NCBI GenBank assembly: GCA_964545895.1
Contig: CAZJHS010000003.1
Span: forward strand, 4,421 to 68,420
Source of the DNA: an uncultured Chitinophaga sp.
GTDB lineage: Bacteria > Bacteroidota > Bacteroidia > UKL13-3
DNA: 64,000 nt
Direction of reading: 5' to 3'
In this document: positions 5,619-19,767 of the stretch, one piece after another
Position numbering within the stretch: the first letter of the stretch is position 1
Layout of the letters: each line of letters starts with the position of its first letter
The notes under the pieces: generated by a model
What the model saw: the letters and a program-made list of their open reading frames with translations, nothing else
Told to the model about the DNA's origin: nothing
Database searches by the model: none
Program-made: the position numbers and the translations under genes

Positions 5619-5722
5619 TAAAAATTGTAAGTGTTTTATTTATAACGATATTGAAATCTATCTAAAAATATGCTGCCAACATATCCGACCGATTTATGGG
5701 CCATGTAAATTAAAATAGAAAC

Positions 5723-7366
5723 ATGAAATCAAAACAACTAATTTTCATACTACTATCTATAATAACGCTTTGTCAATATTCATTTTCCCAAGACAGGACG
5801 AAGAGTAAAGTTTCTACACTTGTAGTTAAATCACTTGACCAATTAGAGTTTCCTTTAATTAAAAATCAACGCATACAGGCAAAGTTGTTTCGTGTTTTTC
5901 CAACTTCCGATACCACTTCAACAATTGGATATTATGATTACAACACAACAAATTTGTTTTTACAGCAAGTATCACATAAGGGTTACATCATAAAAACCGA
6001 TACTATTAATATCACTAACTTTAAACACAAAACAGGTTATAAAAATTTATTGTCTTATACGCTCATCAATACTGATAGTATTCTGTTATTCTTTAATCCT
6101 GCCTACGGTAACAAATATTACACTCATGACAGTGCACTATATTTAGTCAATCACAAGTCAAATCTTATTAAAATTATTTCAATGAATGATGTAAATGTAT
6201 CAACTTGGAATAAGGTTAAAGAAAATGATTTTTCTGTTGAAAAAAACCACCTATCAAACCCTTACTTCCTTGATTATAGGTATTCTACATTAACATACAA
6301 TGCTAAAAAAAGAGAAATATTTATAAACCTAAAAGCGTTCTCTGACACAAAAGCGAATTCGAATATCGCATCATCAATTATTGGCTTCTTGAATATTGAT
6401 TCTGAAAAATTCTCTATTGCTGACAAATCCTATTTCAGTTCATTAAACTATCCAAGCAACCTAATTCAAACAAGACATGTTGCACGATATGATGAAGATT
6501 TTTTTCTCACTGGATACGGTTTTACAAATAGATTTAACTGCTATTCTACTTCAAAAAATCAATTTATTAGGTCTGTTGATGTAGCAGCAGCATTTCTTGA
6601 TTCTATTAAACCTTTTACTGTAGAACAAAAAACTGGCGATAATTTTTCAGAAGGACAATTTCAACGAATACTTTATCATCCTCGATTAAAAAAATACATA
6701 AATGTATATCAAACCAAGGCTAAAAATGATAATTCTGAATATGATAATAAAATCATCATGCAATATATTGATAGTAGCTTTATTGTATTAGGAGAAATGA
6801 AAGTACCATCAAAATACTGGGAAAATTTTCAACCATTTGGTTCTAACTTTTTGGTGTTTGATGAGGCGACTTCAATAGATAGGAATAAATTAGTTTTTGA
6901 TATTGTTGATTTTAATTTTGATAGTAGTGTCCAAGAATTCAATAAAGAAAACATTGAAGATTTAACAGGAGAAACCCCAGAAAATTCGTTTAAAAAACTT
7001 ATTTCAGACGTAACGCAGAAACAATATCGAGAATTTGTATTTATTAATTATGAACGTTCATGCAAAACATGTATCACCTACTTAAATGATTACCTTAAAA
7101 CCAACTACCATTGGCTTAAAAACACTAATGTCGCCTTTATGATAGTTTCTTCAAGCAAGGAACAGGTAATACAAAACATAGGTGATGCGCATCAAATGGA
7201 TAATTTATTCATTTTAACTCCGATATATTATAAAAAATATCTGCCAGAATTAACTCACTTTAAGCATGTTGTTATGAAATCAGGTGGTAGTATATCTATT
7301 GAACAGTTTCAACCGTCAAATATGCATGTACTTTATAATAAGATTAATAAGCATCGTAAAAAGTAG
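5723..7366 (+). CDS. Secreted hypothetical protein with a C-terminal thioredoxin-like CxxC segment
   Basis: 547 aa with a signal peptide (LCQYSFSQ). It is N/K/Y/F-rich and AT-rich by eye. The C-terminal segment is FVFINYERSCKTCITYLNDYL. I recognise no family with confidence. Confidence 0.7.
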   Translation: MKSKQLIFILLSIITLCQYSFSQDRTKSKVSTLVVKSLDQLEFPLIKNQRIQAKLFRVFPTSDTTSTIGYYDYNTTNLFLQQVSHKGYIIKTDTINITNFKHKTGYKNLLSYTLINTDSILLFFNPAYGNKYYTHDSALYLVNHKSNLIKIISMNDVNVSTWNKVKENDFSVEKNHLSNPYFLDYRYSTLTYNAKKREIFINLKAFSDTKANSNIASSIIGFLNIDSEKFSIADKSYFSSLNYPSNLIQTRHVARYDEDFFLTGYGFTNRFNCYSTSKNQFIRSVDVAAAFLDSIKPFTVEQKTGDNFSEGQFQRILYHPRLKKYINVYQTKAKNDNSEYDNKIIMQYIDSSFIVLGEMKVPSKYWENFQPFGSNFLVFDEATSIDRNKLVFDIVDFNFDSSVQEFNKENIEDLTGETPENSFKKLISDVTQKQYREFVFINYERSCKTCITYLNDYLKTNYHWLKNTNVAFMIVSSSKEQVIQNIGDAHQMDNLFILTPIYYKKYLPELTHFKHVVMKSGGSISIEQFQPSNMHVLYNKINKHRKK

Positions 7367-7542: not shown

Positions 7543-8907
7543 ATGAAACAGTTTTTAGCACTTGTTGTAGTAGGCTTAGTAATGTGCTTAGGCACAAATA
7601 CCATGGCACAAGGTCAATTAATTGATGAAATTGCCGCTGTAGTTGGCGAAAACATCATTATGCAATCTGAAATTGAAGTGGAGTTTTTTCAGCTTCAGAA
7701 AGAAATTGGCCAATTAAACGATAGTGCCAAATGCGCTATACTTCGCCAAAAAATTGTAGAACGTATGATGCTTACCCAAGCACAATGGGATAGTTTACCA
7801 CAAAACGATGAGCGGGTAGATATGGAATTGGAAAAGCGTGTAAAATACTTTGCATCGCAGTTTCAGGGTGGCGAAAAGGAAATGGAAAAATACTACGGTA
7901 AAACCGTAGCCGAGATAAAAGCCAGCAACCGAGATAAAATTAAACAAAGCTTATTGGTGCAAGAAATGCAAGGCAAAATTTTACGTGAGGTAAAAGTATC
8001 GCCAACTGATATCAAGAAATTTTACAACGAATTAGATAAGCTTGATAGCCTGCCATACTACAGTGCCGAAGTAGAGTTGGCACAACTTGTAATGACTCCT
8101 AAAGTAAGCAAAGAGGCTAAGCAAATTGCGCTCGAAAAAATTACAGAATTACGTGCACGTATTATGCGTGGCGATAATTTTGGTACCCTTGCTCTTATTT
8201 ACAGCGATGATAAAGGTTCGGCCCAAAACCGCGGTGAGCTTGGTTTTTTTGGTCGTGGTGATATGGTACCCGAGTTTGAAGCAGCCGCTTTTAAGTTAAG
8301 ACCTGATAGCATTTCAAAAATTATTGAAACCAAATATGGCTACCATATTTTGCAGTTAATTGATCGTAAAGGCGAGAACATTAACATCCGCCATATATTA
8401 ATTAAACCACAAATTTTCCGCACGGATATTGCCCGTACCAAAGAGATTATGGACAGTGTACTTTGGTTAGTAAAAATAGACTCGTTAACATTTGAGCAAG
8501 CTGCACAAAAGTTTAGCGATGATGAAAACACCAAAGCAAACGGTGGCTTTATTACTGATGGAAATATTGGATCAACCAAAATACCATTGGACGAATTGCC
8601 TAAAGATATTTATTACACCATTGAAAAATTAGAGCCAGGCCAAACCACCGAGCCTGATTTAATGACCTTGCCTACACCCGATAAACAACAAGCTTGGCGC
8701 GTATTTTACTTAAAATCGCAAAGTGCACCACACCGTGCAAACATGCGCGATGATTATCAAAAATTACAAGCACTAACCTTACAACGTAAGCAAATGTTAG
8801 CCATGCAAAACTGGATTGCCAAACACAAGGATTTATACTTTATACAAATTAGTGATACCTACAAAAACTGCAACAATATTCAAGAGTTTTTAAAGAAAAG
8901 TAACTAA
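7543..8907 (+). CDS. SurA-like peptidyl-prolyl isomerase/chaperone
   Basis: 454 aa with a signal peptide. It has a SurA-N-like region and two parvulin domains (KYGYHILQLID, then IRHILIKP...). Confidence 0.85.
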   Translation: MKQFLALVVVGLVMCLGTNTMAQGQLIDEIAAVVGENIIMQSEIEVEFFQLQKEIGQLNDSAKCAILRQKIVERMMLTQAQWDSLPQNDERVDMELEKRVKYFASQFQGGEKEMEKYYGKTVAEIKASNRDKIKQSLLVQEMQGKILREVKVSPTDIKKFYNELDKLDSLPYYSAEVELAQLVMTPKVSKEAKQIALEKITELRARIMRGDNFGTLALIYSDDKGSAQNRGELGFFGRGDMVPEFEAAAFKLRPDSISKIIETKYGYHILQLIDRKGENINIRHILIKPQIFRTDIARTKEIMDSVLWLVKIDSLTFEQAAQKFSDDENTKANGGFITDGNIGSTKIPLDELPKDIYYTIEKLEPGQTTEPDLMTLPTPDKQQAWRVFYLKSQSAPHRANMRDDYQKLQALTLQRKQMLAMQNWIAKHKDLYFIQISDTYKNCNNIQEFLKKSN

Positions 8908-9891: not shown

Positions 9892-10494
9892 ATGAACAGA
9901 ACTTGGGCTATACTGTTATCAACTGTTTTTCATCCGGTATTTATTAACCTACTTAGTTTTATTTTAGTAATAGAACTTACCCCTTATTTACAAGCAGGAT
10001 TTACCCCAGAAGCCAAATGGTTTTATGTGCTGTATGTATTTATTACCACAGGCATGATTCCGTTATTTGTAGTAGTGTTGCGCAAAGCACTAGGGTTTAG
10101 TAAAAGCATTATGCTTGATCATGCCGATGACAGACACATACCTTACATTACAACTGCCATAGCCTATTTAATGGGCTACTACTTTTTTATTAAGCTAGGA
10201 GCGCCACATATTTTACAAGGCTACATGTTGGCCAGTGCCTGTATCATGGTATCTATACTTATTATTAATTTTTATACCAAAATTAGCGCACATGCTACCT
10301 CGCTTGGTGCACTGGTAGGCTTACTTATGGCATTAAGTTCGTATGCTTTGGTTGATGTACGCATTTACCTGGTAGTAACCTTAATTTTAACTGGCCTAAC
10401 CTGCGTAGCTCGCTTGGCATTGCAAGCACACACCCACCAACAAATATACTGGGGTGCTTTTATTGGGTTTATGATGATGTGGTTGGTGATGTGA
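9892..10494 (+). CDS. Polytopic membrane protein (possibly PAP2-like)
   Basis: 200 aa with about 6 TM helices. SAHAT...ARLALQAHTH weakly resembles PAP2 motifs. Its last 21 codons are duplicated at 13181-13247. Confidence 0.6.
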   Translation: MNRTWAILLSTVFHPVFINLLSFILVIELTPYLQAGFTPEAKWFYVLYVFITTGMIPLFVVVLRKALGFSKSIMLDHADDRHIPYITTAIAYLMGYYFFIKLGAPHILQGYMLASACIMVSILIINFYTKISAHATSLGALVGLLMALSSYALVDVRIYLVVTLILTGLTCVARLALQAHTHQQIYWGAFIGFMMMWLVM

Positions 10495-10498
10495 TTTT
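10432..10498. repeat. Direct repeat DR1a (67 bp; 3' end of the membrane-protein gene)
   Basis: acccaccaacaaatatactggggtgcttttattgggtttatgatgatgtggttggtgatgtgatttt matches 13181-13247 at 66 of 67 positions. Confidence 0.95.
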
Positions 10499-10841
10499 AT
10501 ATTGCGAACAAACTAATAGCCAATCCCAACATTTTTATTCTGCTTTCATCATCACATTTTTCTAGTGAAATGATAAAATCGCTCCAGGTAGAAATGGTGT
10601 AATTAAAAGTTATACCACCACCCGCAAGATCCATAACCAACTGTTTATCGCAGTCTAATACATCACAAATTTCAACAAACTGTTGAAGCGGAACAACCTT
10701 TAATTGCCCATTTTCTAATTTAGAATACACGCTGCGCGTAATACCACATTTGTGCGCCACATACTCTTGTTTAAGGGCTTTGCGTTGCCTAATTAATTTA
10801 AGCAGCAAACAAATATTGTTATAGTAGGCTTGTTTGTTCAT
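10497..10841 (-). CDS. XRE-family helix-turn-helix transcriptional regulator
   Basis: It has the HTH_3 pattern LIRQRKALKQEYVAHKCGITRSVYSKLENGQ. I prefer the ATG at 10841 to the TTG at 10862 given in the ORF track. Confidence 0.8.
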   Translation of the reverse strand: MNKQAYYNNICLLLKLIRQRKALKQEYVAHKCGITRSVYSKLENGQLKVVPLQQFVEICDVLDCDKQLVMDLAGGGITFNYTISTWSDFIISLEKCDDESRIKMLGLAISLFAI

Positions 10842-10875
10842 GGAGTATAATAGGTTAAACAAGTTTAATAAAAAT

Positions 10876-10890
10876 GTGCATCACATGCAC
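10876..10890. promoter_or_regulatory. Perfect 6-3-6 palindrome (candidate XRE operator) in the divergent promoter region
   Basis: gtgcat-cac-atgcac lies immediately upstream of the XRE gene. A palindromic gtgcac follows at 10905-10910. Confidence 0.35.
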
Positions 10891-11040
10891 CATATGTTCA
10901 TATTGTGCACGCGATTTTACTTCAAGTAATGCCAAACCAATAATAGTTTTGAGTTGAGTTTACAAAGTGTTACTGCAGAGCATTATTGAAACTTACGGAT
11001 AGCCGAAAACGGATTAGAGTAGGCAATAAATAAATTTAAT

Positions 11041-11448
11041 ATGAAAAAAGTAATTTCATTGTTATTAACAATCATGTCAGGAGTAATGTATGGTTATGGA
11101 CAAACAACATATGTTGTTGAAAACGGAGTAACATACACAAGGATTTTCACAATTCAAGAGTACCAGTCATTAGGGTTAATGGTTGAAGGAGAAGAAGTGG
11201 CTGAAGCTGCAAGAAAGAAGAAATCAGGAACAATTTTGTGGTGTAAAAAAGGTTATGGGTGCTGTTTGTCATCAAGAATTGAAATAGATGGAAATGGTGG
11301 AATTACCGCTATGACTGTTGTTGCCCAAGTTGATGATGAAGGGAATGCGGTACAAGAAACAAGTGGAATCTTTGCTTATTATAATTCAGAATTAGATGAA
11401 GTTATTTATCGTGTTACATCAACACCACCAGCTGTAATCGCAAATTAG
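11041..11448 (+). CDS. Small secreted protein with a WCKKGYGCC cysteine motif
   Basis: 135 aa with a signal-like N-terminus (MKKVISLLLTIMSGVMYGYGQ). An acidic EGEEVAEAA stretch is followed by RKKKSGTILWCKKGYGCC. I recognise no family. Confidence 0.6.
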   Translation: MKKVISLLLTIMSGVMYGYGQTTYVVENGVTYTRIFTIQEYQSLGLMVEGEEVAEAARKKKSGTILWCKKGYGCCLSSRIEIDGNGGITAMTVVAQVDDEGNAVQETSGIFAYYNSELDEVIYRVTSTPPAVIAN

Positions 11449-11458
11449 TATTTAAATA

Positions 11459-11489
11459 ATGCCAACAATTAAATTGTTGGCATTTTATT
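11459..11489 (+). terminator. Hairpin terminator/attenuator between the small gene and the 557-aa gene
   Basis: Stem gccaacaat / attgttggc followed by attttatt, 11 nt after the stop at 11448. Confidence 0.55.
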
Positions 11490-11502
11490 CTTATTTTTAT
11501 TT

Positions 11503-13176
11503 ATGAAACGACTATTATTTTTATTGATTTGCTTTAATCAGTTTAATGTAAACGCTCAGTTTACTGAAAAATTTTATCATTTGGATACTTATGCTGCTGA
11601 AGCAAGTTTTGATTCATTGATACGAAATGAAATTCAAACTCATGATAGCTTGTCAGAGAGCTACTATCTCATAACCTATCCCATATTGGCTGGTGCTACT
11701 AGTTGGGTTCCTCAATTTATCAGGATATTTAATAAAATAAAAAACACAAATAATGATATTGTTATACTCTACTATCTAAATGGGGGATTACGAGAGAAAG
11801 ATATTCCTTTATTTATGAAGGAAAAATTGAAAATGACAGATGCAGACATGAAAAAAGTGAAAACTATTTTTAATGATGAACTTTATACAACCATAAGTAA
11901 TGGGAGAAACTTGGTTAGGCTGCAATATTATTTTAGAAGAAAATTATACTATGATGAGGCGGGAAAATGGCATGATGTTGCAGCAACAAATTTGCCAGAA
12001 GAGAAAATAACTATTAAACAAATAAATAAAATTCAATTAAAAGAAATTGACTCATTGCTCCTATTTGAAAGAGACCAAATTTTTCCTTTTAAAGAAGATA
12101 AATTACTTATTTTAAGTGATGCAAAAAATGAAATCCTAGAACTTGATGTTAATTCAGGAGAAGTAAAACCATTTATCTCAATAAATAAGGTATTTAACGC
12201 TACTGATATATATTGTAAGTATTTTGCGAATGGAGACACCTTAGCTTGTAACTATGCAAAAAAATTGGAACACAAAGTTACTTCAATTGGTAGGCAAACA
12301 TTAAAAATTGATGGAGTTAAAAAAGTGGATGATTTTCTATATCTGTCAGGGGGAATTGAAGCATTTGTTCAAGACAAAAAAGATTATACATTTAAAAATG
12401 AAGAGGGAGAAAAAGTTACTATTGAAGCGAGTGAACCTTCTACATCCTATTTTGGCTTAATATTTAAATACAACTTAATTACTAAGCAATGTGAAATATT
12501 TAGGTTAGAGGAGTTGCCCGAAACTCGGAAAGATTTTCCATTCATTTATCCAGATTGTGGACTTTTTATGAAACAAGATACCATTGTTGCTGGCGTGAAT
12601 ACATGGCATAAAAAAGGTTTAAACACATTTAATTTAATTAATCTAATACCCAAAGATGGCAGCTATAAACCAGCTAATAAATTGGCACCATTAGAGATAA
12701 AATCACCACTATTGGCAGATAATTACAACAAAAGTTTTTTTTATACATTTAATGAACAGCAATACTTTTCCATCAACTTTAGTAAACACATTTACTTAGT
12801 TGGCAGAGAAAAACCACAATCTAGTTTATATGGTAATGGCAGCTCCCCATACAGTATCGAAAAAGTTCCTGACTTTGTGGAGGACACTTCTTCATCACTA
12901 TTGGTAAACTTTTCTATACACGACATGAAGCCAATTTTTAATAACAGGTACTTACTAACTTATTGTGATTTTAAAGGGCAACCTATTTTCGAATTAAAAA
13001 ATCGGATGTTAAAAACCGTTGACATAATAGATGCAAAAAGTATTAAAGGGCTTGAGCGCTATTATTCAAACAACTATAGAATTGATTTACTAATTGATAA
13101 CGATAAGATATATTATAAGAGTATTGATAATGGTGAAATGTTTCTAAATGTATTTTCTATCCTACCAGTCAACTGA
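11503..13176 (+). CDS. Secreted hypothetical protein (N-terminal thioredoxin-like segment without CxxC, then a beta-rich region)
   Basis: 557 aa with a signal peptide (NQFNVNAQ). The segment YYLITYPILAGATSWVPQFIRIFNKIKNTNNDIVILYY resembles the CxxC segment of the 5723-7366 product. It looks AT-rich. Confidence 0.7.
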   Translation: MKRLLFLLICFNQFNVNAQFTEKFYHLDTYAAEASFDSLIRNEIQTHDSLSESYYLITYPILAGATSWVPQFIRIFNKIKNTNNDIVILYYLNGGLREKDIPLFMKEKLKMTDADMKKVKTIFNDELYTTISNGRNLVRLQYYFRRKLYYDEAGKWHDVAATNLPEEKITIKQINKIQLKEIDSLLLFERDQIFPFKEDKLLILSDAKNEILELDVNSGEVKPFISINKVFNATDIYCKYFANGDTLACNYAKKLEHKVTSIGRQTLKIDGVKKVDDFLYLSGGIEAFVQDKKDYTFKNEEGEKVTIEASEPSTSYFGLIFKYNLITKQCEIFRLEELPETRKDFPFIYPDCGLFMKQDTIVAGVNTWHKKGLNTFNLINLIPKDGSYKPANKLAPLEIKSPLLADNYNKSFFYTFNEQQYFSINFSKHIYLVGREKPQSSLYGNGSSPYSIEKVPDFVEDTSSSLLVNFSIHDMKPIFNNRYLLTYCDFKGQPIFELKNRMLKTVDIIDAKSIKGLERYYSNNYRIDLLIDNDKIYYKSIDNGEMFLNVFSILPVN

Positions 13177-13180
13177 TATT

Positions 13181-13247
13181 ACCCACCAACAAATATACTG
13201 GGGTACTTTTATTGGGTTTATGATGATGTGGTTGGTGATGTGATTTT
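13181..13247. repeat. Direct repeat DR1b (67 bp)
   Basis: Second copy of the 3' end of the membrane-protein gene. The single mismatch (10456 g vs 13205 a) would change Ala to Thr. Confidence 0.95.
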
Positions 13248-13377
13248 GTTTATTGGTTAAGCCATACTAATGACTTAAAAAAATCATAATTTACATTGTG
13301 CACATCCATGCGTAATTAAGATTAAAAAACAATAATTAAATTTGAGTTAAGCCATTGGCCAAGCTAAAATTTATACT

Positions 13378-16300
13378 ATGAACCTAAGAGCCCTAATTAC
13401 TTTACTTCTATTACTACCATTAGGTGTTTGTGCGCAGCAATTTACTGATGCAACAGTTATTGGGGGATTAGGTGGCCAAGGCGTAAACAATATTTATCAT
13501 GATAATATTGGAAACAAATATGTGTTGCTTTTCTCAGACAAGCCAATTACAATTGATAGCTCGGGAACCCCGATTACTATAACTAGTAATTCAAGAGAGT
13601 ATGCGCTCATAAAGTATTCTAATAAAAATAAGTATTTACACCACATAAGTATTAAACGAGTTTGGCCAAATAGTAGTTTTGTTGTTTCATTTACCTCCCA
13701 AAACGACCTTCTGCTTTCTTGCTCTTTTAATCATCGTGATACCATAGAACTTTATCATTCCAACAGATTATTATATAAACAGTTAATTATCAGAAATGGA
13801 ACTCCACCTTTAGCTCGTAACATTGCAGTTTTCATTACTAAAATTAGCTCAAGTGGGCAGTTCTTATGGACCTCGTTCATCAATAAATTAAACGCCAATT
13901 ACACTCAACAAGGTGCAATTGAAGTTGGCGTTTATTGCCACTCCGATACTGCTATTTATGTTAGTTTTAGTAGTGACCAATTAACAAATAGCATTGATAC
14001 TATTTTAGTAACTAATAACACAAATCAATCCGATACTATTTTTTCCAATAAGGTATCAATCATTGTTAAACTTAATCAACAAGGCAAGTTACTTACCTAT
14101 ATCGAACCGCTTAAATCTTTAAAACATTTTCAACAAGATTCAGCACTTATAAGAACATTTAAAATAGCTAAAATTAATAACAATATTTACTTCGTATTAA
14201 ATGCAACAATTACAACTCCAGATAGTATTGTTGGATTAAGTCAAACCACACCAATTGATACCGGCACTGTTTATTTACTTTTTAAAATGAACCTTACAGA
14301 TAGCATAGTTTGGGCAAAAGAAATAGTAGTAAATCATACCGGACCACAAGTACAATATCCAATTATTGACTTGAGTTCTGATACGGTGAATAATCATTTA
14401 CTTTTAGCTATTGATTTTGACCCGTATCGCAACGAAATGAAATTGTTTAGTTCCAACGCAAGCTTCGGAACTTATTTGAGCAAAATTGATGAACAAGGGA
14501 ATCCGGTTTGGAGCGAATTTCTGAACAACATTAGATACCCTACCTACAAAAAAAACTATACTAATAAACAATCCGTTCTAATTGGAGAAACGGTCTATCC
14601 AAATGGATATTTTCAGCATTATTTACCATACAACCAACTTGGCATTCGAACAACTTTTATTGCTTTTCAAGATAGCATGAACAGGTTTTTTAATGCACAA
14701 AGCATTCACGCTAATCAAGTAACCTTCAGCAGCACCTTATCAATATCAGGCATATCTATTAGTCCAAATGGTAAAGTAGCAGTTGGTGGTTCATTTTTGG
14801 ACAGCATCTCATTACCCTGTAGAACTATCCAAGCCACACTTGATTACAGCGACTACGGACAAAAACTATCTGATGGCTTTTTATTAGAATACAGCCCAAT
14901 ATTGGCAATTGATACTGCTGTTTGTAAAAGAATGATATCGCCTAGCGGTAAATACACTTGGGATAGTACTGCCTATTATTTTGATACCATACCTAATAAA
15001 TTGGGCTGCGATAGTACCCTATTGTTTTATGTGAAGGTAATGCAAGATAAAGTTTCAATTGACACTACTGTTAAAGTAAGCATGCAATCGCCAAGTGGTA
15101 AATATATTTGGGATAGCACCGCAACCTATACCGATACCCTGACTAATACTTTTGGATGTGATAGTATACTTACTTTTAATGTAAAGGTGTTACAAAACAG
15201 CACTTTTATTGACACTTCGGTTTGTTTGTTTTTTAAACTTAGCACAAGTTTAAAAGCATTTTACCAAACAGGTAATTTTATTGATACCCTAACCAACCGC
15301 TTGGGGGGCGATAGTATTGTTTACATTAAACTTACCATACTTAAAAGTACTGCAATTATTGATACCTCGTTTTGCAATAAAATACTAAGCCCTAGTGGTA
15401 AGTTTTGGTTAAACAATACAGGCGCGTATACCGATACATTAATGAACAAGCATAATTGTGATAGTATAATCGCCATTAGGTTTACACGCTTACCCATGAT
15501 GGATACAATTCGGCTATCTGCATGTAAACCATTAGGCAGCCCTAGTGGTAAGTTTGTTATGAATGAAACCCGTTGGTATACCGATACATTAGTGAGTAGT
15601 AAAGGTTGCGACAGCATACTACAAATTGACTATACGCAAATACGTATTACCGATACCATTGTTTTAGCCAATTGTAATGCGGCTTTAAGTCCAAGCAATA
15701 AATTTGTAATGCAACAAAGCGGCTGGTATACCGATACCCTTATAACCACCAATGGTTGCGATAGTATAATACGTATAAATTTTACGCTTTTAAAATCAGC
15801 TAGTAGTATTGTGCTGGTTGCTTGCGATAGCCTTATATCGCCTAGTGGTAAATTAGTTTTTAATGCACCTGGAGTTTATACCGATACAATAACAAATGCT
15901 GCAGGTTGTGATAGTATTATTACCATTAATTTAACTTTTTCTAATTCGCAAATAAGCGTTTCAAAATCAAATGATATTAGTTGCGAAAACCAAAGCGCTG
16001 TATTAACCGCATCGGGTGGTAGTGTTTATGTTTGGCAACCATCAACAGGGTTATCAAACACGCAAATTAGCAATCCCATTGCTAACCCCCACCAAACTAC
16101 TCAATACACAGTAATTGCTACTGATGCCTACGGTTGTAAACTTTCAGATACGATATCGGTTTATGTAAATATATTAGATAGTGTTAACAATATACCAAAT
16201 GTAATTACACCAAATAATGACGGATTAAACGACTGCATTTCGGCAGAAAATATCGCTCAATTTAACACTTGCTCATTTGTTATTTTATCGCGCTGGGGTA

Positions 16301-16458
16301 ATGTTGTTTGGCAAACCAACAATCCTAAAAATAATTGGTGCGGCACTACCGAAAACGGACAAGAAACAGCCGAAGGAACATACTATTATATACTTAAAGG
16401 CACAACGCTTTGTAATCAAAAAATTAATAGTACGGGTACAATTACAGTTATTAGGTAG
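13378..16458 (+). CDS. Large secreted protein with a T9SS type B (gliding-motility CHU_C) C-terminal sorting domain
   Basis: 1026 aa with a signal peptide. It contains seven 50-aa Cys-containing repeats. The C-terminus is IPNVITPNNDGLNDC...GTYYYILKG...TGTITVIR. Confidence 0.85.
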   Translation: MNLRALITLLLLLPLGVCAQQFTDATVIGGLGGQGVNNIYHDNIGNKYVLLFSDKPITIDSSGTPITITSNSREYALIKYSNKNKYLHHISIKRVWPNSSFVVSFTSQNDLLLSCSFNHRDTIELYHSNRLLYKQLIIRNGTPPLARNIAVFITKISSSGQFLWTSFINKLNANYTQQGAIEVGVYCHSDTAIYVSFSSDQLTNSIDTILVTNNTNQSDTIFSNKVSIIVKLNQQGKLLTYIEPLKSLKHFQQDSALIRTFKIAKINNNIYFVLNATITTPDSIVGLSQTTPIDTGTVYLLFKMNLTDSIVWAKEIVVNHTGPQVQYPIIDLSSDTVNNHLLLAIDFDPYRNEMKLFSSNASFGTYLSKIDEQGNPVWSEFLNNIRYPTYKKNYTNKQSVLIGETVYPNGYFQHYLPYNQLGIRTTFIAFQDSMNRFFNAQSIHANQVTFSSTLSISGISISPNGKVAVGGSFLDSISLPCRTIQATLDYSDYGQKLSDGFLLEYSPILAIDTAVCKRMISPSGKYTWDSTAYYFDTIPNKLGCDSTLLFYVKVMQDKVSIDTTVKVSMQSPSGKYIWDSTATYTDTLTNTFGCDSILTFNVKVLQNSTFIDTSVCLFFKLSTSLKAFYQTGNFIDTLTNRLGGDSIVYIKLTILKSTAIIDTSFCNKILSPSGKFWLNNTGAYTDTLMNKHNCDSIIAIRFTRLPMMDTIRLSACKPLGSPSGKFVMNETRWYTDTLVSSKGCDSILQIDYTQIRITDTIVLANCNAALSPSNKFVMQQSGWYTDTLITTNGCDSIIRINFTLLKSASSIVLVACDSLISPSGKLVFNAPGVYTDTITNAAGCDSIITINLTFSNSQISVSKSNDISCENQSAVLTASGGSVYVWQPSTGLSNTQISNPIANPHQTTQYTVIATDAYGCKLSDTISVYVNILDSVNNIPNVITPNNDGLNDCISAENIAQFNTCSFVILSRWGNVVWQTNNPKNNWCGTTENGQETAEGTYYYILKGTTLCNQKINSTGTITVIR
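14923..15972 (+). repeat. 7 x 150-bp in-frame tandem repeat (C..SPSGK[YF]..W....YTDT..N..GCDSI)
   Basis: Units start at Cys codons from 14923 to 15823, with an average period of exactly 150 bp. The third unit (CLFFKLSTSLKAF...GGDSI) is degenerate. Confidence 0.85.
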
Positions 16459-16518: not shown

Positions 16519-16624
16519 CATCCATGCCTTTATCTAAAACCATTATTACTTTTATATTTAGCATTTGCAGCTTCTTGTTTCTTTCGTGCGGAAAATTGTA
16601 CCTAAAAGCTACTGGTGTAAAACC
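16519..16624. repeat. Direct repeat DR2a (106 bp; copy of the 5' end of the lipoprotein gene at 18343)
   Basis: Matches 18338-18443 at 105 of 106 positions, with a constant offset of 1819 bp. Confidence 0.95.
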
Positions 16625-16628
16625 ATAA
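16524..16628 (+). pseudogene. Truncated duplicate of the lipoprotein gene 5' end (signal peptide/lipobox only)
   Basis: MPLSKTIITFIFSICSFLFLSCGKLYLKATGVKP followed by a stop. Homology to the 18343 gene ends abruptly at 16624. Confidence 0.7.
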
Positions 16629-16720
16629 ACGTTACTGATTTTGACATGGGCTTATACATTGTACGTTTAGTGATAGACGACCAAACCGTTGCTAATACAA
16701 TACTCAATTATTCAAATTAA
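16628..16720 (+). pseudogene. 3' remnant of a T9SS C-terminal sorting domain gene
   Basis: Translates as NVTDFDMGLYIVRLVIDDQTVANTILNYSN plus stop. It resembles the last strands of the CTDs elsewhere in this window (GLYYLKINTPKGVIVKKIVKD, GIYFVKFTL...). It has no upstream body and keeps its own terminator. Confidence 0.55.
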
Positions 16721-16778: not shown

Positions 16779-18296
16779 ATGAAAAAAAATTGGCTATTAC
16801 TAGTAATTATATTCTTTACCCAATTGTTAAAGGCGCAAAATACACAGTTGTTTCACAATAGGGATAGTACTAGCAGCAGAGTTATACTTTTATCTACTGG
16901 CTCTGATAATAGTTCACTATATAGTTTAAGTTGGCACTTACCAATTGATTCGATTCAGGATAATAATCGATTTTATTATAAGATAAAAAAAATTGACACA
17001 TCGGGAAATTTATTAGCGGCAAACGAAATTTATAAGAATGGAAAATTAAACGCCAGTTATCAACCAAGTACACCAAATCAAACTGACTTTGTTATTGTTG
17101 AAAACAGTGACACCTCAGAAAACTCTGTATACTACATAAACTATATTAAAAGTAATTTAAAAGTTGATAGTTTTATTTTACCGTTAATTGGTAAAACCCC
17201 ATATCTGTTTACCTATTGCAAACACAATGATAAGCTAATCATCATTTCATCAGACAGTAGAACTCTTGGAAACAAGGCATACGTAACCATTGCAGATACA
17301 CTTGGTAATGAAATTAAAACACAAAGATTCCTTTACGAATACTTTTATAATCAAACCAACCAAATAAGCATTACTCCGCTATGCTTGATTAGCGATGGAA
17401 ATGGAGGATTTATATCTGGTGGATGGTATGATACAGCTTCACAAGAAACCAAAATAAACTTGTTTAGAATTGATAGTTTGGGAAATAAAACTTGGGAGTA
17501 TAAAGAAACACGGATTGGAGGTTCTTTTATAAAAGGCATGCAGCTATTGCCTGATAAAACCATTTTAGCTTATGGAGCTTATGGAGATTTAATGTACTTG
17601 GCCAAGTTTAGTCAACAAGGTCAATTACTTAACGAAAATTTTTATTATCCAGGTGGTTTTATCGATCGTACAAGTGGCCGTTGCAATATTATTAATGTTA
17701 AAATAATTGATGGATATATATATGCCGTTGGTGGATCGCACAATATGTTTAAAGCACTTAATACATACACCGATTTGGGTACGCTTTTAAAAACAGACTT
17801 AGATGGTAAACCCATTTGGGCCAAGCAATTTGGCAATTATTATGGTTACAATATTCTAGATCAAATTTACCAAACATCAAATAGCCGATTGTTGTTGGCA
17901 GGGCTTGGTGTTGACAGCACACAAATGCCTTTACATGGAGTAAGCTGGTATGTAAGTACTGATACTGCTGCTAACGAAAACCTGCCTTGGTGCCAATTAG
18001 TAAATGTTGAGCGGTATTATCCATTTACGGGTATTAACGAGGTAAGTAGTTTGGGTTCAATGATACAAGTATATCCAAACCCAACAAATGGTGAGTTAAC
18101 CATTAAAAATCCCTTACAACTAGCTATTAACCAAATTCAATTTTATGACGGAAATGGTACACTTTGCCACACCCAATTATTTGATGAGCCAAACGCCCAG
18201 TTTAATATTGATGTTACTTATTTAAAACAAGGATTGTATTACTTAAAAATAAACACACCTAAGGGTGTTATAGTAAAAAAAATTGTAAAAGATTAA
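16779..18296 (+). CDS. T9SS type A sorting domain-containing secreted protein
   Basis: 505 aa with a signal peptide. The CTD is IQVYPNPTNGELTIKN...GLYYLKINTPKGVIVKKIVKD. Confidence 0.85.
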   Translation: MKKNWLLLVIIFFTQLLKAQNTQLFHNRDSTSSRVILLSTGSDNSSLYSLSWHLPIDSIQDNNRFYYKIKKIDTSGNLLAANEIYKNGKLNASYQPSTPNQTDFVIVENSDTSENSVYYINYIKSNLKVDSFILPLIGKTPYLFTYCKHNDKLIIISSDSRTLGNKAYVTIADTLGNEIKTQRFLYEYFYNQTNQISITPLCLISDGNGGFISGGWYDTASQETKINLFRIDSLGNKTWEYKETRIGGSFIKGMQLLPDKTILAYGAYGDLMYLAKFSQQGQLLNENFYYPGGFIDRTSGRCNIINVKIIDGYIYAVGGSHNMFKALNTYTDLGTLLKTDLDGKPIWAKQFGNYYGYNILDQIYQTSNSRLLLAGLGVDSTQMPLHGVSWYVSTDTAANENLPWCQLVNVERYYPFTGINEVSSLGSMIQVYPNPTNGELTIKNPLQLAINQIQFYDGNGTLCHTQLFDEPNAQFNIDVTYLKQGLYYLKINTPKGVIVKKIVKD

Positions 18297-18298
18297 CG

Positions 18299-18325
18299 GC
18301 TACTCACACACAAAATAAAAGTCTC
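18299..18325. repeat. Direct repeat DR3a (27 bp; copy of the 3' end of the FkbM methyltransferase gene)
   Basis: gctactcacacacaaaataaaagtctc matches 19020-19046 at 26 of 27 positions. On the minus strand it still encodes DFYFVCE-stop, and the mismatch is synonymous (GAC vs GAT). Confidence 0.85.
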
Positions 18326-18337
18326 TTCATAAAACTT

Positions 18338-18443
18338 CATCCATGCCTGTATCTAAAACCATTATTACTTTTATATTTAGCATTTGCAGCTTCTTGTTTC
18401 TTTCGTGCGGAAAATTGTACCTAAAAGCTACTGGTGTAAAACC
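18338..18443. repeat. Direct repeat DR2b (106 bp)
   Basis: Copy that forms the 5' end of the lipoprotein gene. See DR2a. Confidence 0.95.
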
Positions 18444-19006
18444 TTTTAAGCCAGTAATAGAACAGCAATTAATTAGTTACTTAAGCAAACAAGGTGTTAA
18501 ACAAGAGCGTATTTATGAAGTAGATTCTGTTCGTTTTAACGAGTTGCTTACATGATACATTAGTTTACACTAAGCCCAACTGGTGGATTCAAAATCATAT
18601 TCAACCTATACAAACCGTATGTTTTGATAATGCTACTAAAAAGCCACTGTATGCGTATTTTAATTGTATTGCAGAAAGTAAAGGGTTAACTCAATTTACT
18701 TGGAATAAATTTCAGGAGCTAGAATCGTTTCCGCCCAAAGAATATACCTCATACCGTTGGATAGACACCTTATTTACATTAAATGAATTAACCAATACAT
18801 TTGTTGATTTTAAAGGAAATTCAATTGTGTTGAACAATAACGAGAAAAAGTATACTGTATTTATTTACTACTCATTATTTGTAGAGAAGCAAGCCAACAA
18901 TTTGATAAGAGAAACGCTTACTCACCTCAACACTTTTATACCAAACGACTATAATGTGTACTTTATCAATTTTGATAATGCACTGTATCAGCTAAGTACT
19001 AATTAG
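18343..19006 (+). pseudogene. Lipoprotein gene interrupted by a frameshift
   Basis: Frame 0 runs from 18343 to the stop at 18553-18555 and includes the lipobox FLSCG. A second frame, offset +1, is open from 18524 to the stop at 19004-19006, adding about 150 aa (LHDTLVYTKPNWWIQNH...NALYQLSTN) with no start codon of its own. Confidence 0.6.
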
Positions 19007-19019
19007 GTTATACCCAACA

Positions 19020-19046
19020 GCTACTCACACACAAAATAAAAATCTC
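19020..19046. repeat. Direct repeat DR3b (27 bp; authentic 3' end of the methyltransferase gene)
   Basis: See DR3a. Confidence 0.85.
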
Positions 19047-19767
19047 CTTGTTCGTAGTTTAAGGCATTGGCACGTGTAAGTTCGCTTAGCTTACCTTGTT
19101 GCAGTTGCATAATTTTGTAGCCCAAAGGCAAAAACAAATCAAAAATAGTTGCTCTATTTTCGGGGCTGCTAATTTCCATTTGTATGGTAGGTTTAAACTT
19201 AGCAATTGTTTTTATAAAATGAGGCATCAAAAAAACTTCATAGCCTTCTACATCGCACTTTAAAAAATCAAACCTGGTTAAATGGGCAAATAATTCGTCA
19301 GGAATTTGCATGGCAACTTGGTAAGTATGCATGTTAGCCTCCTGCGCGTGGCTATCAATAACCTTTGTTAAACCGTGTCTAAAAACCCCATCAACCATGG
19401 GTGTGCCCATTTGTATGGTTTTATGCTCGCCACCTAATGCAGTTTGGTGCAGGGTAATATTACCTAAACCAAATTGAGTTACATTTTTTCTGAAAATGCT
19501 GGCAAATAAATCAACTGGTTCAACCGCATGTACATGTCCATTTGCACCTGCATATTGCGATAAAAACACCGAGTAGTAACCTACATTAGCACCAATATCA
19601 ACACAAACAAAACCTGGCTTTACTAATTGTTGTAAAAAGAATAATTCGGGATATTTTTTCTTTAAAAATCCCGAGCGTATTAAACGAATATAAACCTCGC
19701 TAACCAAGGCCAAGTATTTCTGATGTCCTAATACATCAAGCAGTAATGCGCGTAATTGTTTTTCCAT
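19021..19767 (-). CDS. FkbM-family methyltransferase
   Basis: 248 aa with the SAM-binding motif VCVDIGANVGYYS and FLKCDVEGYE. Confidence 0.8.
   Translation of the reverse strand: MEKQLRALLLDVLGHQKYLALVSEVYIRLIRSGFLKKKYPELFFLQQLVKPGFVCVDIGANVGYYSVFLSQYAGANGHVHAVEPVDLFASIFRKNVTQFGLGNITLHQTALGGEHKTIQMGTPMVDGVFRHGLTKVIDSHAQEANMHTYQVAMQIPDELFAHLTRFDFLKCDVEGYEVFLMPHFIKTIAKFKPTIQMEISSPENRATIFDLFLPLGYKIMQLQQGKLSELTRANALNYEQGDFYFVCE

Follow-up and report, generated by a model that had tools for sequence, protein, structure and literature searches.

The DNA analysed here, referred to as the window, is a stretch of 64,000 nucleotides (nt) from an uncultured Chitinophaga sp. (GenBank assembly GCA_964545895.1, contig CAZJHS010000003.1, positions 4,421 to 68,420 of the forward strand). 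Our subject is a 67-nt direct repeat (DR) composed of two copies, DR1a and DR1b, of the 3' end of a gene called M, which encodes a membrane protein, together with the three genes that these copies bracket and the variable segment in which they reside, i.e., the interval between M and a convergent methyltransferase (MT) gene. The features in and around the repeat are as follows:

9892-10494, forward strand: M, the gene for a 200-aa PAP2-like membrane protein; its last 20 codons and stop codon are the source of the repeat.
10432-10498, forward strand: DR1a, the native 3' end of M plus TTTT, which differs with the M allele of the strain.
10497-10841 (ATG start, 114 aa) or 10497-10862 (TTG start, 121 aa), reverse strand: gene for an XRE-family helix-turn-helix (HTH) regulator, convergent with M.
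11041-11448, forward strand: gene for a 135-aa protein with a signal-peptide-like N-terminus and no known family.
11503-13176, forward strand: gene for a 557-aa protein with a signal-peptide-like N-terminus, an N-terminal alpha/beta domain and a beta-propeller.
10869-13293, no strand: block of zero diversity, without any variable site, which approximates the cargo slot of a related lineage (contig L040, see below) and is offset from the repeat copies on both sides.
13180-13181, no strand: J1, the one novel (illegitimate) junction, where the flank of the 557-aa gene is joined to M position -67.
13181-13247, forward strand: DR1b, a non-coding stub of the M gene tail, the same in all strains.

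The two copies of the repeat are 67 nt each and agree at 66 of 67 positions. The sole mismatch, at repeat position 25 (G at 10456, A at 13205), is non-synonymous, as an Ala codon (GCT) becomes a Thr codon (ACT) when read in frame with M. Between the copies lie 2,682 bp (10499-13180) with three open reading frames (ORFs), encoding the XRE regulator, the 135-aa protein and the 557-aa protein; the stop codon of the XRE gene (10497-10499) overlaps the end of DR1a by 2 nt, and DR1b begins 4 nt after the stop codon of the 557-aa gene. A preliminary description of the window had reported this arrangement, and it is genuine in all these respects except that the repeat, given there as 21 codons plus stop, consists of 20 sense codons, the stop codon and 4 nt. 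No third copy of the 67-mer is found in the 64-kb window with up to 3 mismatches allowed, and none of 100 shuffles yielded as many as two 67-mer matches. A repeat search of the whole window revealed, besides the 67-nt DR, one other long direct repeat, of 106 nt. DR1a and DR1b are found on one contig in five independent assemblies from different samples (L001, L002, L003, L005 and L006), with identical junctions, and the two-copy arrangement is therefore not an assembly artefact. In L005 and L006, DR1a differs at repeat positions 18 and 33, and the A at repeat position 25 is unique to DR1b, being present in no M gene sampled.

Downstream of DR1b, the interval continues to the MT gene with the following features, some of which relate to the type IX secretion system (T9SS) and the C-terminal domain (CTD) of its cargo proteins:

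13248-13377, forward strand: spacer and upstream region of the 1026-aa gene; homology to L040 resumes at 13315.
13378-16458, forward strand: gene for a 1026-aa T9SS type-B (CHU_C) secreted protein, with internal 150-nt repeats.
16519-16624, forward strand: head stub of the 224-aa gene (5' end plus upstream sequence), the left copy of the 106-nt direct repeat (105 of 106 identical).
16625-16720, forward strand: CTD stub (INVTDFDMGLYIVRLVIDDQTVANTILNYSN*), similar to the final strands of the sorting domain at the C-terminus of T9SS proteins and fused to the 224-head stub.
16779-18296, forward strand: gene for a 505-aa T9SS type-A (Por_Secre_tail) secreted protein, absent in L002.
18299-18320, forward strand: MT-tail stub (stop codon and about 6 codons of the MT 3' end), a perfect 22-nt repeat with its other copy at 19020-19041.
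18338-18443, forward strand: authentic 5' end of the 224-aa gene, which forms the right-hand member of the 106-nt repeat pair.
18343-19006, forward strand: the '224-aa' lipoprotein-like gene, a pseudogene in the window.
19021-19767, reverse strand: the Methyltransf_21 MT gene, convergent with M and the right border of the islet.

The stretch between M and the MT gene is a hypervariable islet with at least six alleles in the population. Same-species contigs were gathered by exact-protein look-up, and one (L027) by translated search; the related contigs are of metagenomic origin, and at least one of the assemblies (L003) is labelled activated sludge. In the JGI metagenome and GTDB genome collections same-species contigs were essentially absent, save for a 1,092-nt fragment (L027), the other matches there being relatives at 25-76% identity. 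The allele survey lists 10 of 19 contigs, with these arrangements:

Cassette allele with both repeat copies (L001, L002, L003, L005, L006): M, XRE-135-557, stub, the 1026-aa gene and onward.
L002 type (L002): M, XRE, 135, 557, stub, 1026, 224, MT, i.e., like the window minus the 505-aa gene.
L001 type (L001): like the window, except that the 1026-aa gene is followed by a third M tail (118 nt).
Allele B (L004, L009): M, a 78-nt spacer, the '224-aa' gene, the MT gene.
Allele C (L007, in its tail; L027, at 170-190): M and MT convergent, with 1 nt between their stop codons (TGA-T-TTA).

Allele C is the ground state of the locus, and because the stop codons of M and MT are 1 nt apart in this state, an insertion that is tolerated must regenerate a gene end. 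The gene order of allele B is also found in sister species (L025 and L030, 70-75% identical). Contig L017 was considered as another example of M adjoining the MT gene and was rejected, as it carries the 224-aa gene at this position. The preliminary description had proposed that an empty site should be sought. Alleles without the insert are indeed present in the population, but none of the contigs surveyed lacks exactly the three genes bounded by the repeat; L004, L009, L007 and L027 lack much more than this unit.

Contigs from two related lineages indicate where the boundaries of the variable unit are found. In L041, from a related lineage, homology at 93% identity extends over window positions 10605-13179, with XRE-135-557 present, and stops at 13179; beyond this point are an MT-tail stub, a 224-head stub and a CTD stub, with no M tail. 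Because XRE-135-557 is followed there by the MT-tail stub, the cassette exists without DR1b. In L040, from a lineage with 91% identity, M has 92% protein identity and is followed at the same junction by the XRE gene on the reverse strand (95.6% aa identity), with no repeat. Next in L040 come different cargo, a 391-aa T9SS gene, and a homolog of the 1026-aa gene (72% identical); the contig is homologous to the window up to 10922 and again from 13315, the slot 10923-13314 being non-homologous.

A map of single-nucleotide polymorphisms (SNPs) was made from eleven sequences, i.e., the window and ten contigs, five of which were retrieved via the M protein and are hence unbiased for the cassette. 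The zero-SNP block of 2.4 kb (10869-13293) lies among flanks with about 1-3% variable sites, locally up to 12%; there are 10 variable sites in the XRE region (10499-10868, about 2.7%), 8 in M and 12 in 13294-13393. The block leaves out the XRE gene and reaches 46 nt past DR1b. From this SNP desert it follows that the recently spread block is composed of 135-557-DR1b plus 46 nt, which is approximately the cargo slot defined by L040, and the pattern suggests that the 135-557-stub segment has recently undergone a gene-specific sweep. DR1b consequently lies inside the cargo segment instead of marking its edge, and the XRE gene appears, from these comparisons, to be an older resident of the locus that is located outside the recently spread block.

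The M tail is one of three distinct gene termini that are duplicated within 9 kb, the others being the 224 head (106 nt) and the MT tail (22-31 nt); the M-tail copies are 67 or 118 nt long. Duplication of three gene termini in one locus is not something that a single site-specific recombinase can account for. The 106-nt repeat pair brackets the CTD fragment and the 505-aa gene, an insert that is missing in L002. The likeness of the CTD stub to the CTDs of the window was judged by eye, with no Pfam match on its 31 aa. The counterpart of the MT-tail stub in L001 is a 31-nt repeat, 90% identical, and the location of the MT-tail stub directly 3' of the 505-aa gene implies an earlier state in which these two genes were adjacent, i.e., the 505-aa gene and the MT gene. 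In the window and in L016, the 224-aa gene has an 11-nt deletion after 18552 relative to L017, which leads to a premature stop. An indel outside the islet was also seen: L001 and L002 have an extra 180-aa gene between a peptidyl-prolyl isomerase (PPIase) gene and a low-GC 547-aa gene, which the window is without (5631-5722 vs L001:5189-5831), and this indel has no flanking direct repeat. Given this and the presence of just two long direct repeats in the window, the stubs are specific to the islet.

In L001, an M-tail copy flanks the 1026-aa gene on each side, one 67 nt and the other 118 nt long. The longer copy is equivalent to window positions 10381-10498, sits immediately 3' of the 1026-aa gene, and is followed by exactly the spacer that is found downstream of M in the empty allele B; the spacer that starts at 13248 in the window has TTTTGTT in common with this M-downstream sequence of allele B. 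The junction of the 118-nt stub displays an 8-nt microhomology, TTAATTTT, exactly at the join, which is present both in M at -118 (ccTTAATTTTaac) and in the sequence 3' of the 1026-aa gene (GTTTAATTTTgcc); runs of at least 8 nt are shared by 3e-4 of random position pairs from this locus. The stub has an A at repeat position 33, where the M gene of L001 itself has a T, which means that the stub came from the allele of another strain.

Searches of Pfam, NCBIfam, PADLOC and PHROGs gave no match to a recombinase, transposase or relaxase for any of the three ORFs between the repeat copies, in line with the preliminary description, which had noted that integrase, transposase and relaxase ORFs are missing; the 557-aa protein has zero matches in these collections and is not a recombinase. 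Neither integrase, transposase nor relaxase was found in the window ORFs scanned around the DRs and at 30-60.5 kb (with the exception of a few short ORFs and of two located at 60.6-63.9 kb) or in the precomputed Pfam tags of L001 and L016 that cover about 0.2-9.9 and 19-30 kb, and none of the roughly 40 related contigs covered, alleles included, was found to carry an integrase. As to an integron cassette, there is no integrase in the scanned ORFs and no imperfect inverted-repeat site at the cassette ends, and the DRs are copies of a gene end, not attC. As to a transposon or insertion sequence, there is no transposase and no inverted repeat that pairs 10499 with 13180, and the duplications of 67-118 nt vary in length, unlike a short target-site duplication of fixed length. 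The window has no tRNA that could be a target. Two cassette-only contigs of 2,775 nt (L013 and L014), with a 26-nt overlap of their ends and a period of 2,749, were considered as circles and rejected because Logan contigs end k-1 = 30 nt inside repeats, as L016 and L017 do at the 106-nt repeat; the ends of L013 and L014, at 10469 and 13243, are those predicted if DR1a there has the L005-type A at position 33.

The data discussed above suggest that DR1b is probably the scar of one homologous crossover and one illegitimate join between alleles, formed either by homology-facilitated illegitimate recombination (HFIR) or in a Campbell-like manner. In such a scenario the M-MT interval would be a recombination hot spot where strains differ in gene content, and the DNA of another strain would enter by a RecA-type homologous crossover in the shared flank, combined with an illegitimate, microhomology-assisted join. 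A gene end that is carried by both partners would be duplicated as a stub, and repeated events would stack alleles that are separated by stubs. One kind of event, i.e., a homologous crossover in the shared flank plus an illegitimate join inside a gene that is also carried by the partner, would suffice for all of the stubs. Two features that are expected for HFIR are found at the locus. Truncated copies of flanking genes lie beside heterologous DNA (the M-tail, 224-head and MT-tail stubs and the CTD fragment), and stubs are derived from the allele of a different strain (the third copy in L001 and the unique A at position 25 of DR1b).

Starting from the observed stubs, alleles, junction sequences and SNP desert, we infer an order of events, a donor allele and uptake of its DNA. 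First, the 557 flank of a recipient with an L041-type allele, 'M|XRE|135|557|methyltransferase-tail...', would have become linked, at M position -67, to a fragment of an 'M|13248...|1026' allele, the donor. The donor allele is predicted to read ...GCAAGCACAC + 67-mer + GTTTATTGGTTAAGCC, with M followed directly by 13248..., such that 13248-13314 would be the native M-downstream sequence of this allele. Second, the other crossover, in shared sequence to the right, would lead to the L002 arrangement. Third, homologous recombination with an L041-type allele, the crossover falling in the head of the 224-aa gene, would add the 505-aa gene and yield the arrangement of the window. Fourth, a further HFIR event would give rise to L001. 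Fifth, the 135-557-stub block (plus 46 nt) would have spread through the population by ordinary homologous recombination. The present-day 67-nt repeat would be at most a substrate for RecA-mediated deletion of the three genes.

A number of points weigh against this interpretation. None of the retrieved contigs has the predicted donor allele, with M directly ahead of 13248... and the 1026-aa gene. At J1, the perfect microhomology with the start of the MT-tail stub is limited to 2 nt (AC), a value that 19% of random pairs reach, and a wider patch, in which 7 of 10 positions match the MT-tail start, is on its own not significant. Furthermore, J1 is located only 4 nt past a stop codon, and a random join would need either selection or a pre-existing compact 557|MT boundary. 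The three tandem M-tail copies in L001 are also what is expected of serial site-specific integration. The scenario further presupposes some route of DNA uptake, such as natural competence, in this uncultured Bacteroidota lineage. Finally, HFIR and Campbell-type insertion yield identical end products and are indistinguishable by sequence here.

A strict form of the latter, in which a circularised [67-nt M tail - XRE - 135 - 557] entered the M tail of a recipient by a single RecA crossover, M of the recipient being located directly before the 1026-aa gene, is in our view unlikely. Such a Campbell-type capture would account for the H-cargo-H structure seen here and for its one novel junction (13180|13181), it does not need a recombinase, and it explains the 118-nt and 106-nt repeats equally well. 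However, the XRE region displays about 2.7% variable sites while there are none in 135-557-DR1b, so that the XRE gene does not look co-acquired, even though later recombination could blur this pattern. In addition, 67 nt is short for RecA, and the capture requires a circularisation step and an 'M|1026' allele that was not observed.

We consider it quite unlikely that the repeat reflects site-specific integration by a recombinase acting in trans, i.e., CIME-like accretion (CIME, cis-mobilizable element), in which the M 3' end was the attB site and XRE-135-557 and afterwards the 1026-aa gene entered serially as integrase-less cassettes, with an att copy left behind by each. A target duplication of the kind expected is present, in the form of the 67-nt repeat with 66 of 67 identities; direct repeats of a gene 3' end that restore the gene, the three tandem M tails in L001, of which the outermost runs into the empty-site spacer, and the existence of alleles without the whole array would all be consistent with this mechanism. 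On the other hand, no integrase accompanies the locus in any of the contigs covered, and there is no constant core, as the tail copies are either 67 or 118 nt long and the join of the latter falls inside the 8-nt microhomology. Stubs of two other genes are found in the same locus, L041 has the cassette without an attR, and L040 has the XRE gene at the junction without a repeat. Neither the presence/absence unit, as seen in L040, L041, the SNP desert and the larger empty alleles, nor the recently spread unit (10869-13293) is bounded by the DRs, and a precise three-gene empty site was not seen. The same set of observations (L040, L041, the SNP block, the other stubs and the 118-nt copy) speaks against the proposal in the preliminary description that the DRs are attL and attR of a discrete cis-mobilizable element of three genes. 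Its fallback pointed in the right direction insofar as it invoked capture by recombination from a diverged donor with no dedicated integrase, and the alternative it named as refuting, i.e., that the second copy is the tail of a decayed M paralog, comes close to the result, the tail of a truncated allelic copy of M.

The M tail could be a genuine attachment site for a trans-acting recombinase, and more broadly the lineage may have a dedicated, recombinase-gene-free way of stacking secreted-protein cassettes, with gene-end duplications of 67-226 nt as its product; we regard this as very unlikely. Hints in its direction are the three tandem M tails in L001 and a repeat-bracketed homologous module in the unrelated contig L036. 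In the latter, a 48% homolog of the module composed of a small gene and a 557-family gene is present in two stacked alleles with an HTH gene between them. Common to the stacked alleles are 226 nt of upstream sequence that extend into the gene as far as codon 4 (9293-9518/12688-12913) and, interleaved with these, a 174-nt gene head (11675-11848/14802-14975). L036 is an independent case of stacked alleles.

An intragenomic templated insertion, in which a template switch during replication or repair placed a 67-nt copy of the M tail between the 557-aa and 1026-aa genes of a single genome, without any contribution from foreign DNA, would account for a short copy that is near-identical to a resident gene and for the patchy microhomology at J1. 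We find it highly improbable, as the A at position 25 occurs in no M gene sampled, and the 118-nt copy in L001 has the allele of another strain and runs into the native spacer of that allele, which implies an inter-strain origin of that stub. A collapsed or chimeric repeat, i.e., an assembly or binning artefact, deserves next to no credence, since short-read contigs do break at the 67-nt repeat but the five assemblies that span both copies with identical junctions are independent and from different projects.

The genes at the locus were also characterized individually. The match of M to PAP2 in a profile search is weak (E 0.0011, below the cut-off); homologs of M are found at 25-99% identity and several of these are tagged PF01569. 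The XRE gene matches HTH_3 (E 1.9e-9). In L002, a perfect 99-nt tandem duplication within this gene (L002:10662-10859) results in a 147-aa product and is either real or an assembly artefact. A small gene (115-135 aa) is located upstream of the 557-family gene in L034, L036, L037, L038 and L041, with similarity to the 135-aa protein of the window seen directly in L036 and L038 only. The 557-aa protein is probably exported, to judge from its signal-peptide-like N-terminus. Its AlphaFold2 (AF2) model, at a predicted local distance difference test (pLDDT) score of 71, displays a fold composed of the N-terminal alpha/beta domain and a beta-propeller, and a Foldseek search with this model returned propeller matches, with the best template-modelling (TM) score to 4raa (BF0058, an exported Bacteroides protein). 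The family is tiny, with 8 relatives whose neighbourhood differs from genome to genome, and no member was found on a phage or plasmid in IMG/VR or PLSDB. The neighbouring 547-aa protein was considered as a paralog of the 557-aa protein and rejected on comparison. In L037, a homologous module of 126-aa and 543-aa genes is located downstream of a two-component system and is bracketed by a 28-nt direct repeat (6265-6292 and 8802-8829, 93% identical) that holds the hairpin TGGTTAAAAATAACCA.

The motif ATTGTGCAC is found both in the divergent promoter region between the XRE gene and the 135-aa gene (10902-10910) and upstream of the 1026-aa gene (13295-13303); as a shared XRE operator it was rejected, the 2 matches in the window vs 1.5 expected not being significant. 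Just upstream of the 135-aa gene, at 10993-11025, lies the only Rfam match found, a sub-threshold DUF805b RNA (22.6 bits vs a gathering threshold of 35.6, E 0.0099). The 1026-aa gene contains, at 14919-15934, at least 6 tandem units of 150 nt (50 aa) with the motif SPSGK...YTDT...GCDS, which are diverged internal repeats of a surface protein.

The locus is best filed as a set of recombination scars, i.e., orphan gene-end stubs, in a hypervariable islet, which is a known kind of structure and does not call for a new mechanism. It is a clean natural example, from an uncultured activated-sludge Bacteroidota, of an islet that grows additively, gene by gene, without mobile-element machinery, where each stacking event leaves a dated stub of a neighbouring gene. 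The stubs are thereby natural barcodes from which recombination history and gene-specific sweeps can be read in metagenomes. The locus also offers a caution for annotation, because a flanking repeat of a gene 3' end is insufficient to call an integrative element.

HFIR, in which a homology anchor is combined with an illegitimate join at microhomologies of 3-10 bp, has been described for competent bacteria (PMC6382021, PMC2884548), in studies by de Vries & Wackernagel 2002, Prudhomme et al. 2002 and Meier & Wackernagel 2003 as these are summarised in the two articles. The islet shares with these cases the single homologous anchor together with an illegitimate join at short microhomology (8 nt at the L001 junction), the absence of mobility genes, and dimorphic or polymorphic variable segments between conserved flanks. 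In contrast, HFIR has been shown experimentally in just a few competent species, none of which belongs to the Bacteroidota, while the events here are reconstructed from population alleles; the join at DR1b has just 2 nt of perfect microhomology; and the outcome is additive, with stacking and duplicated gene ends, where the usual outcome of HFIR is replacement or deletion.

Orphan gene-end arrays in type VI secretion system (T6SS) and Rhs loci have been attributed to HFIR (Kirchberger et al. 2017, PMC5361080). In the orphan-module arrays of T6SS effector-immunity, Rhs and contact-dependent inhibition (CDI) loci ('C-terminal displacement'), as in the islet, newly arriving modules push older ones further downstream, of which stubs of the 3' end remain, gene fragments are found between intact genes, and an HFIR-like mechanism with no integrase is proposed. 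The cargo of the islet differs in that it consists of genes for secreted or T9SS proteins and an XRE regulator rather than toxin/immunity pairs, and the stubs come from housekeeping-type flanking genes (the membrane protein and the methyltransferase) and from 5' as well as 3' ends.

A comparison can also be made with CIMEs, the kind of element proposed in the preliminary description, and with integrative elements accreted in tandem at a gene 3' end. Direct repeats of the target gene 3' end, tandem copies (in L001) and a unit without an integrase are common to CIMEs and the islet. The islet is different in that there is no cognate integrase-bearing element at the site, repeat lengths are inconstant, one junction displays microhomology, and the DR-bounded unit is neither the unit of presence/absence nor the unit of recent spread.

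Flexible genomic islets, or small variable segments at the species level, have been described by Touzain et al. 2010 (PMC2884548). The interval between M and the MT gene conforms to this description in being a short hypervariable segment between conserved genes, with many alleles per species that known mobile elements mostly do not explain. It stands apart in being unusually layered, with four stubs and at least six alleles between two convergent genes that are 1 nt apart in the ground state.

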